From Escherichia coli (GTDB lineage: Bacteria; Pseudomonadota; Gammaproteobacteria; Enterobacterales; Enterobacteriaceae), in assembly GCF_024700885.2 (NCBI RefSeq), contig NZ_CP117016.1: a stretch of 64,000 nt of DNA; one strand, given 5' to 3'. Within the stretch, counting starts at the first letter, position 1. Each line of letters opens with the position of its first letter. Of this stretch, positions 62,762 through 63,152 are shown in pieces. The notes beneath the pieces were generated by a model that was not told the DNA's origin, did no database searches, and was given only the letters and a program-made list of their open reading frames with translations. A program made the translations under genes and the position numbers.

Positions 62762-63152
62762 GAGAGTGGCGCTATGTGCCATTGCATGGTGCCGGGTGCC
62801 TCCCGGTGAATTCAGTACCAGCACCTGAATCCGCGATTATCCCATATACCTACTCGCTGATTGCCCCTCCGCACAGGGGGATTCACCATGCCAGTTTCTT
62901 TTAACAAACTCCCCGCAAACCAGACAACAGTCAACCGCCTGAATTGTGAAGTATTTAAAAATTTCTCCCGCTAACTGATACCCGGCTAACAGTCTGGCGT
63001 TTTCTTTTTCAGCAACGGGAAAGCAACAACCACCACACCCGCCACCAGCACACCGTCAGCCAGCACTGACATTATCCGGCTGCTGCAATGCCATTCACAA
63101 AAACAGTAAGCAATCACTTTTTACCGTAACAGGTGATAATCCAGATATGTAT

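Follow-up and report, generated by a model that had tools for sequence, protein, structure and literature searches.

A 28-codon hydrophobic ORF in a lambdoid prophage of Escherichia coli is very probably the C-terminal remnant of a tciB (DUF3927) gene

Introduction

The late region of a lambdoid prophage of Escherichia coli contains a minus-strand ORF of 28 codons at 62986-63072 of the window, the stretch of 64,000 nucleotides of contig NZ_CP117016.1 (assembly GCF_024700885.2) that was analysed. The question raised by this locus is whether the ORF is a small gene in its own right or a piece of something larger. The initial annotation described it as a single hydrophobic helix followed by a lysine cluster, reminiscent of small membrane toxins or regulatory peptides, and found it only by hand translation.

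The ORF exists and its translation is exactly as reported, MSVLADGVLVAGVVVVAFPLLKKKTPDC followed by a stop codon. The description of the peptide was equally accurate, as a hydrophobic stretch of 19 residues is followed by KKK. A 15-aa stretch of comparable hydrophobicity occurs in just 4 of the 205 window ORFs of 28-50 aa. The length by itself is uninformative because the window holds 433 ATG-initiated ORFs of at least 28 aa in its six frames. Upstream, the frame remains open as far as a GTG at 63117, which gives a 43-aa form (MIAYCFCEWHCSSRIM...), and a TAA lies two codons beyond.

The order of the late region on the minus strand is the Q antiterminator, two tRNA genes, an ORF at 63153-63506, the 28-aa ORF, the sRNA gene STnc100, an oppositely oriented iraM-like gene, and the holin, lysozyme and Rz genes. 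Q is separated from the cargo genes by the two tRNA genes, both on the minus strand: tRNA-Arg(TCT) at 63617-63693 and a CAT-anticodon tRNA (Ile according to PGAP) at 63800-63875. Upstream of both tRNA genes, at 63938-63919 (minus strand), is a strong intrinsic terminator where Rfam gives a weak Trp-leader-like match. This terminator probably corresponds to tR' of the late promoter.

Existing annotation and family assignment

The ORF had not gone unnoticed, as RefSeq annotates it under the name "DUF3927 family protein". In strain 97-3250 the annotated CDS is the 28-aa form with the same coordinates (WP_000114356.1); strain 20 has the 43-aa form, starting at the GTG (WP_000562553.1). The Pfam profile PF13064 (DUF3927) matches the 28-aa ORF with 58.3 bits (E=7e-16) over positions 26-53 of 53 and the 43-aa ORF with 95.6 bits (E=1.7e-27), so that both forms lie above the gathering cut-off of 25 bits. 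The ORF is also matched by PHROG 1470 ("TciB-like"; E=5.8e-10). The Pfam match implies that the hydrophobic helix and lysine cluster were inherited from a real protein family and did not arise by chance. As ORFs of this length are common in the window, a chance frame in GT-rich sequence, devoid of coding ancestry, could be envisaged. The probability of this is practically nil, since it is refuted by homology, both by the E value of the Pfam match and by the in-frame, collinear alignment of the ORF with the tciB genes of lambdoid and P1-like phages.

The ORF and its DUF3927 assignment may be regarded as already known, being annotated in RefSeq. A literature search with DUF3927, PF13064, the peptide sequence and the WP accessions returned nothing on the protein, and a profile search of the PDB gave no relatives of DUF3927/TciB.

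The intact tciB gene and its TerB partner

A protein search recovered 106 relatives of 23 to 64 aa, all from Escherichia/Shigella except for one partial sequence labelled Pseudomonas aeruginosa. Conservation in related sequences, which the initial annotation had named as a check, is thus borne out by the PF13064 and PHROG 1470 matches and by the presence of intact relatives. These relatives also show that the ORF is not a complete small gene but the C-terminal half of a two-helix gene of the TciB family encoding 54-57 aa. The long relatives, for example MTVKMRLAVVALLLFLVVMVVMVDFSSRIMSVLADGVLVAGVVVVAFPLLKKKASGD, contain two hydrophobic segments connected by a D-F-(S/T)-S loop and have basic termini (MTVKMR... 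and ...KKK). All family-invariant residues (S, L, D, G, L, V ... P ... K) belong to the C-terminal half. The 28 codons correspond approximately to residues 30-57 of the intact protein, as indicated by translation, Pfam, PHROG, RefSeq and alignments. Read from the codon of the internal Met30, they comprise the end of the inter-helix loop, the second hydrophobic segment and the KKK tail.

Intact tciB genes of phages were located with the TerB partner as a query against a phage collection. In the intact loci a gene for a 143-aa TerB-domain protein (PF05099) lies immediately upstream of tciB, and this protein is the counterpart of P1 TciA. The GTG start codon of tciB overlaps the TGA stop codon of tciA in a GTGA motif in 13/13 of the intact loci fetched and is preceded by a GGAG Shine-Dalgarno (SD) sequence. 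The P1-like phage JL22 has the order tciA-tciB-tciC, with its tciB annotated as DUF3927 and matching positions 1-53 of PF13064 with 106 bits. The same overlapping pair of a TerB gene and tciB is present in phages Evi and CharmingMan. In lambdoid phages the intact tciA-tciB cassette is found in the late region, between Q and the tRNA genes on one side and the lysis genes on the other. The pN/pS of the intact genes (lambdoid, P1-like and CharmingMan) is roughly 0.3-0.5, with one pair reaching 0.68, and intact tciB is therefore a real coding gene.

On the sequence evidence, DUF3927 is the TciB family. The name tciB derives from the TerB homology of tciA (PMC9603915). From the TerB literature and the architecture, TciB of the intact cassettes is probably the membrane partner of the soluble, TerB-domain-containing TciA. 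The strict pairing of the family with a TerB-domain protein, as a two-gene phage cassette, is a possibly useful side result.

Damage to tciB in the window

DNA alignment places the start of homology to the intact tciA-tciB loci some 20 nt upstream of the position where translation formerly began. A relic of the 3' end of tciA and of the translation start of tciB occupies 63118-63145 (minus strand), as delimited by alignment to the intact loci and an alignment of 48 haplotypes. Within it, the former SD sequence GGAG has become GGAT at 63142-63139 and the former GTG start codon has become GTT at 63130-63128; the window copy has no start codon of its own with an SD sequence. Compared with the intact genes, the region coding for helix 1 contains deletions of 11, 4 and 14 nt in addition to substitutions. 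From the codons S-S-R-I-M onward, both collinearity and frame with the intact genes are restored. The full-length architecture of two segments (about 53 aa) is thus absent from the window copy.

The extension of the 43-aa PGAP model (MIAYCFCEWHCSSRI, RefSeq WP_000562553.1) consists of 15 codons from the GTG at 63117, occupying 63073-63117 (minus strand). Most of it is helix-1 sequence scrambled by indels, and only its last codons (SSRI) are in the ancestral frame. The "CFCEWHC" N-terminus of the model is a translation of this scrambled DNA. PF13064 nevertheless scores the scrambled 43-aa form (95.6 bits) above an intact lambdoid TciB (70.8 bits), which suggests that the profile was built in part from degenerate N-termini of the same kind. 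This would explain the acceptance of the 43-aa model by PGAP.

The tciA slot is occupied by the minus-strand ORF at 63153-63506, which has 117 codons, probably starts at Met10, and matches PHROG 2873 over the full profile (E=1.8e-69) with no Pfam match. It is unrelated to TerB, and the window copy of tciB accordingly has no overlapping TerB-domain (tciA) gene upstream. The ORF is unannotated in both of the RefSeq records inspected.

Taken together, the 28-codon ORF is very probably what remains of the C-terminal part of a TciB/DUF3927 gene whose start codon, SD sequence, first helix and partner are gone. An unrelated ORF has taken the place of tciA, the SD sequence and start codon of tciB are mutated and the helix-1 region has three deletions. 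Only the frame from the internal Met30 to the stop codon is open.

Junction classes and prevalence

Two IMG/VR scans and other fetched loci provided 136 loci with a tciB 3' end. At least seven classes of 5' junction are found among them, with different cut points due to recombination, deletion or IS2. The window type is represented by 71 of these loci and the intact cassette by 26. The junction lies within helix 2 in 18 loci and 9 nt ahead of the FPLLKKK codons in three. A methylase/tRNA fusion is present in 15, two carry an IS2 insertion, and in the last one a deletion joins an upstream ORF to the loop codons. Some junctions remove the ATG of the 28-aa ORF altogether, and every class retains at least the last 20 or so codons. 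There are also variants of the window type with an IS1 or IS3-family element just upstream.

The methylase/tRNA fusion (junction class C; L089, L032, L096, L066, L069) is another independent route of tciB decay. In this class a fragment of a tRNA gene, situated behind an N6/N4 DNA methylase gene, is fused onto tciB at about codon 8, and a 1-nt deletion in the helix-2 codons destroys the 28-aa frame in 14 of the 15 loci. For junction class D, stx2 was considered as the upstream gene and rejected, the upstream ORFs there encoding a small TrmB-like protein and a Q-like protein. One IMG/VR contig, 2681813267_000008 (L097), carries two window-type tciB remnants about 3.1 kb apart, at 2497 and 5615, which suggests a duplicated or tandem cargo module.

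Of 5426 complete E. coli genomes, 2858 contain the 1-kb region around the ORF, 1183 of them at nearly full length. The remnant allele of the window type is likewise found in 1183/5426, compared with at least 607 genomes that carry the intact junction of the tciA 3' end with tciB.

Translation signals and selection

A second reading of the locus holds that the remnant is still translated, from the ATG at 63072 or in some alleles from the GTG at 63117. The product would be a single-pass membrane micropeptide with its N-terminus outside and its C-terminus inside, endowed with a residual or a new activity, for example in regulation or in perturbing the membrane at a late stage of infection. The frequency of the allele in E. 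coli genomes is in keeping with this, as are the hydrophobic stretch with its KKK tail and the location of the ORF behind Q and the tRNA genes in the late transcription unit.

The translation signal that the initial annotation had proposed to look for is essentially lacking. SD-like pairing at the ATG at 63072 amounts to -3.3 kcal/mol, a value equalled or bettered by 35% of the 2215 ATGs in the window, compared with -6.4 kcal/mol at intact tciB starts. The upstream ORF stops 81 nt ahead of the ATG, which leaves no translational coupling. Translation is possible even with a weak or absent SD sequence. The extension from the GTG is broken in 4 of 113 window-type copies, by GTG to GTT in two and GAA to TAA in two, and P1 TciB has no Met at the position equivalent to the internal Met30.

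The evidence on selection is mixed. The 28-codon frame is open in all 113 window-type copies, which contain 7 nonsynonymous and 8 synonymous variants. The resulting pN/pS of 0.33 is similar to that of the intact genes and nominally below neutrality. In the underpowered test on these copies, the P value against neutrality is 0.03 with equal rates, rises to 0.08-0.16 with transition bias and is 0.12 when two variants shared with intact alleles are removed, so the signal is not robust to either transition bias or shared polymorphism. Two abundant variants of the remnant, L4P (at least 1000 contigs) and G7C (795 contigs), alter the family-invariant L and G residues, and their abundance indicates that constraint on the remnant is apparently relaxed. 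Rare alleles have in-frame deletions in the helix, or frameshifts, and the ORF is frameshifted or missing in other remnant classes.

The window copy and its nearest intact allele are 79% identical in the N-terminal half, with 21 gap columns there; the corresponding values are 99% for the 28 codons, 96% for the non-coding spacer and 93% for STnc100. Flanking DNA that does not code is thus as well conserved, and the high identity cannot be ascribed to the ORF in particular. Among the 113 window-type copies, the density of SNPs is higher in the ORF (14 in 84 nt) than in the spacer (5 in 69 nt). A translated and active remnant is therefore considered unlikely. The narrower proposal that the helix-2-only remnant, carried by roughly one in five complete E. 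coli genomes, would be translated late from the internal Met as a stand-alone single-pass micropeptide is rated as quite unlikely. If true, the remnant peptide might, for instance, perturb the membrane or disturb the TciA/TciB cassettes of phages that reside in the same host or superinfect it, and the locus would be a case of a gene fragment that acquired an independent life.

STnc100 and the downstream neighbours

Downstream of the ORF lies a full-length gene of the STnc100 sRNA family at 62731-62920 on the minus strand (Rfam RF02076, 132 bits, E=8.7e-30), with a terminator at 62761-62740 on the same strand identified by a terminator scan. STnc100 is an Hfq-associated prophage sRNA (PMC5331693, PMC12711010, PMC12370729, bioRxiv 10.64898/2026.05.13.724894). 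The spacer between the tciB stop codon and STnc100, at 62921-62985 (minus strand), is conserved and travels with both flanks.

This arrangement raises the possibility that the DNA is kept for a non-coding reason, as a promoter, an upstream element or a 5' precursor of STnc100. STnc100 is found at a fixed distance, approximately 66 nt past the tciB stop codon, in 136/136 loci with a tciB 3' end, and the retention of the last 20 or so codons by all junction classes agrees with such a role. There is also a weak promoter-like sequence, TTGTGA-18-GATAAT at 63100-63071 (minus strand), the -10 element of which overlaps the ATG of the ORF and the -35 element of which was created by the scrambled region. 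Against this, a promoter scan of the region found 5 sites where 3.6 are expected, which is at the level of chance. STnc100 occurs at 7865 sites in E. coli genomes compared with 3016 for the tciB 3' end plus spacer, and only about 38% of the E. coli copies of STnc100 are preceded by the tciB tail. Homology to the STnc100 loci in Stx2 and other phages begins either at the stop codon or within the spacer, some 30 nt short of STnc100. These phages share STnc100 loci without the DNA of the ORF, and this DNA is therefore dispensable for the sRNA. Retention for a non-coding role is accordingly judged improbable.

Two further observations concern this part of the window. RefSeq places a pseudo-CDS ('hypothetical protein, incomplete') on the plus strand at 62776-62901 (L001 4177-4302). 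It lies wholly within STnc100 and antisense to it, and is therefore probably an annotation artefact. Convergent with STnc100 is the iraM-like gene at 62370-62705 (plus strand), annotated as an anti-adaptor protein of the PmrD family. In K-12, iraM adjoins e14 and has the small genes ymgK and ymgL upstream, with no tciB remnant there. ymgK and ymgL were considered as equivalents of the ORF and rejected as unrelated, because they flank iraM on the opposite side and share its strand.

Interpretation

The reading preferred here is that the ORF is a hitch-hiking remnant of tciB in a mosaic prophage, which probably has no function of its own. The remnant would be transcribed within the Q-dependent late transcript. 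As it is without an effective ribosome-binding site, it probably yields little or no peptide and would have no function of its own. Its persistence may be explained by its being a piece of a young, recombining module with STnc100 downstream, and not by a need for the peptide.

The peptide itself is of little interest. The locus serves as a worked example: a small hydrophobic prophage ORF that looks conserved may be the end of a larger gene deprived of its 5' part, and automatic annotation as a 'DUF3927 family protein' of 28 or 43 aa conceals the truncation. The 3' end of tciB is also a recurrent mosaic boundary beside an sRNA of the STnc100/PasD family, in a lambdoid cargo slot that is also home to stx genes.

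Comparison with known systems

The ORF is similar in size, and in having one helix with a charged end, to the Type I toxins (Hok/Gef, Ldr, TisB, Ibs and ShoB) and other small membrane proteins of E. coli. The likeness to small membrane toxins that had been proposed does not extend to any known toxin family. A Pfam scan at E<=1 returns DUF3927 alone, with none of Hok, Ldr, TisB, Ibs or ShoB, and PADLOC gives no defence-system match apart from a sub-threshold one to TerB. Among described Rfam families, a search of 56000-64000 at E<=1 recovered STnc100 (same strand, downstream), the two tRNAs and two weak, unrelated matches, with no antisense or antitoxin RNA. In contrast to the Type I toxins, the ORF is therefore without a family match to them, without an antitoxin RNA at that threshold and without an SD sequence. 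The resemblance is, as judged from sequence, one of composition only.

TciB of P1 and P1-like phages is homologous to the ORF, and the invariant S-x-L-x-D-G-x-L-V ... P-x-x-K core lies within the 28 residues. P1 TciB has about 54 aa with two hydrophobic segments and is encoded behind tciA, whereas the window copy has neither the first segment, nor a start codon and SD sequence of its own, nor tciA.

The other close counterpart is the intact lambdoid cassette (loci L004-L016 and phage Evi). This has the GGAG SD sequence, the GTG overlapping the tciA stop codon and the ORF of 54-57 aa, all three of which have been lost in the window. The two nevertheless share the same slot, the same spacer and STnc100, and their DNA is up to 99% identical over the 28 codons.
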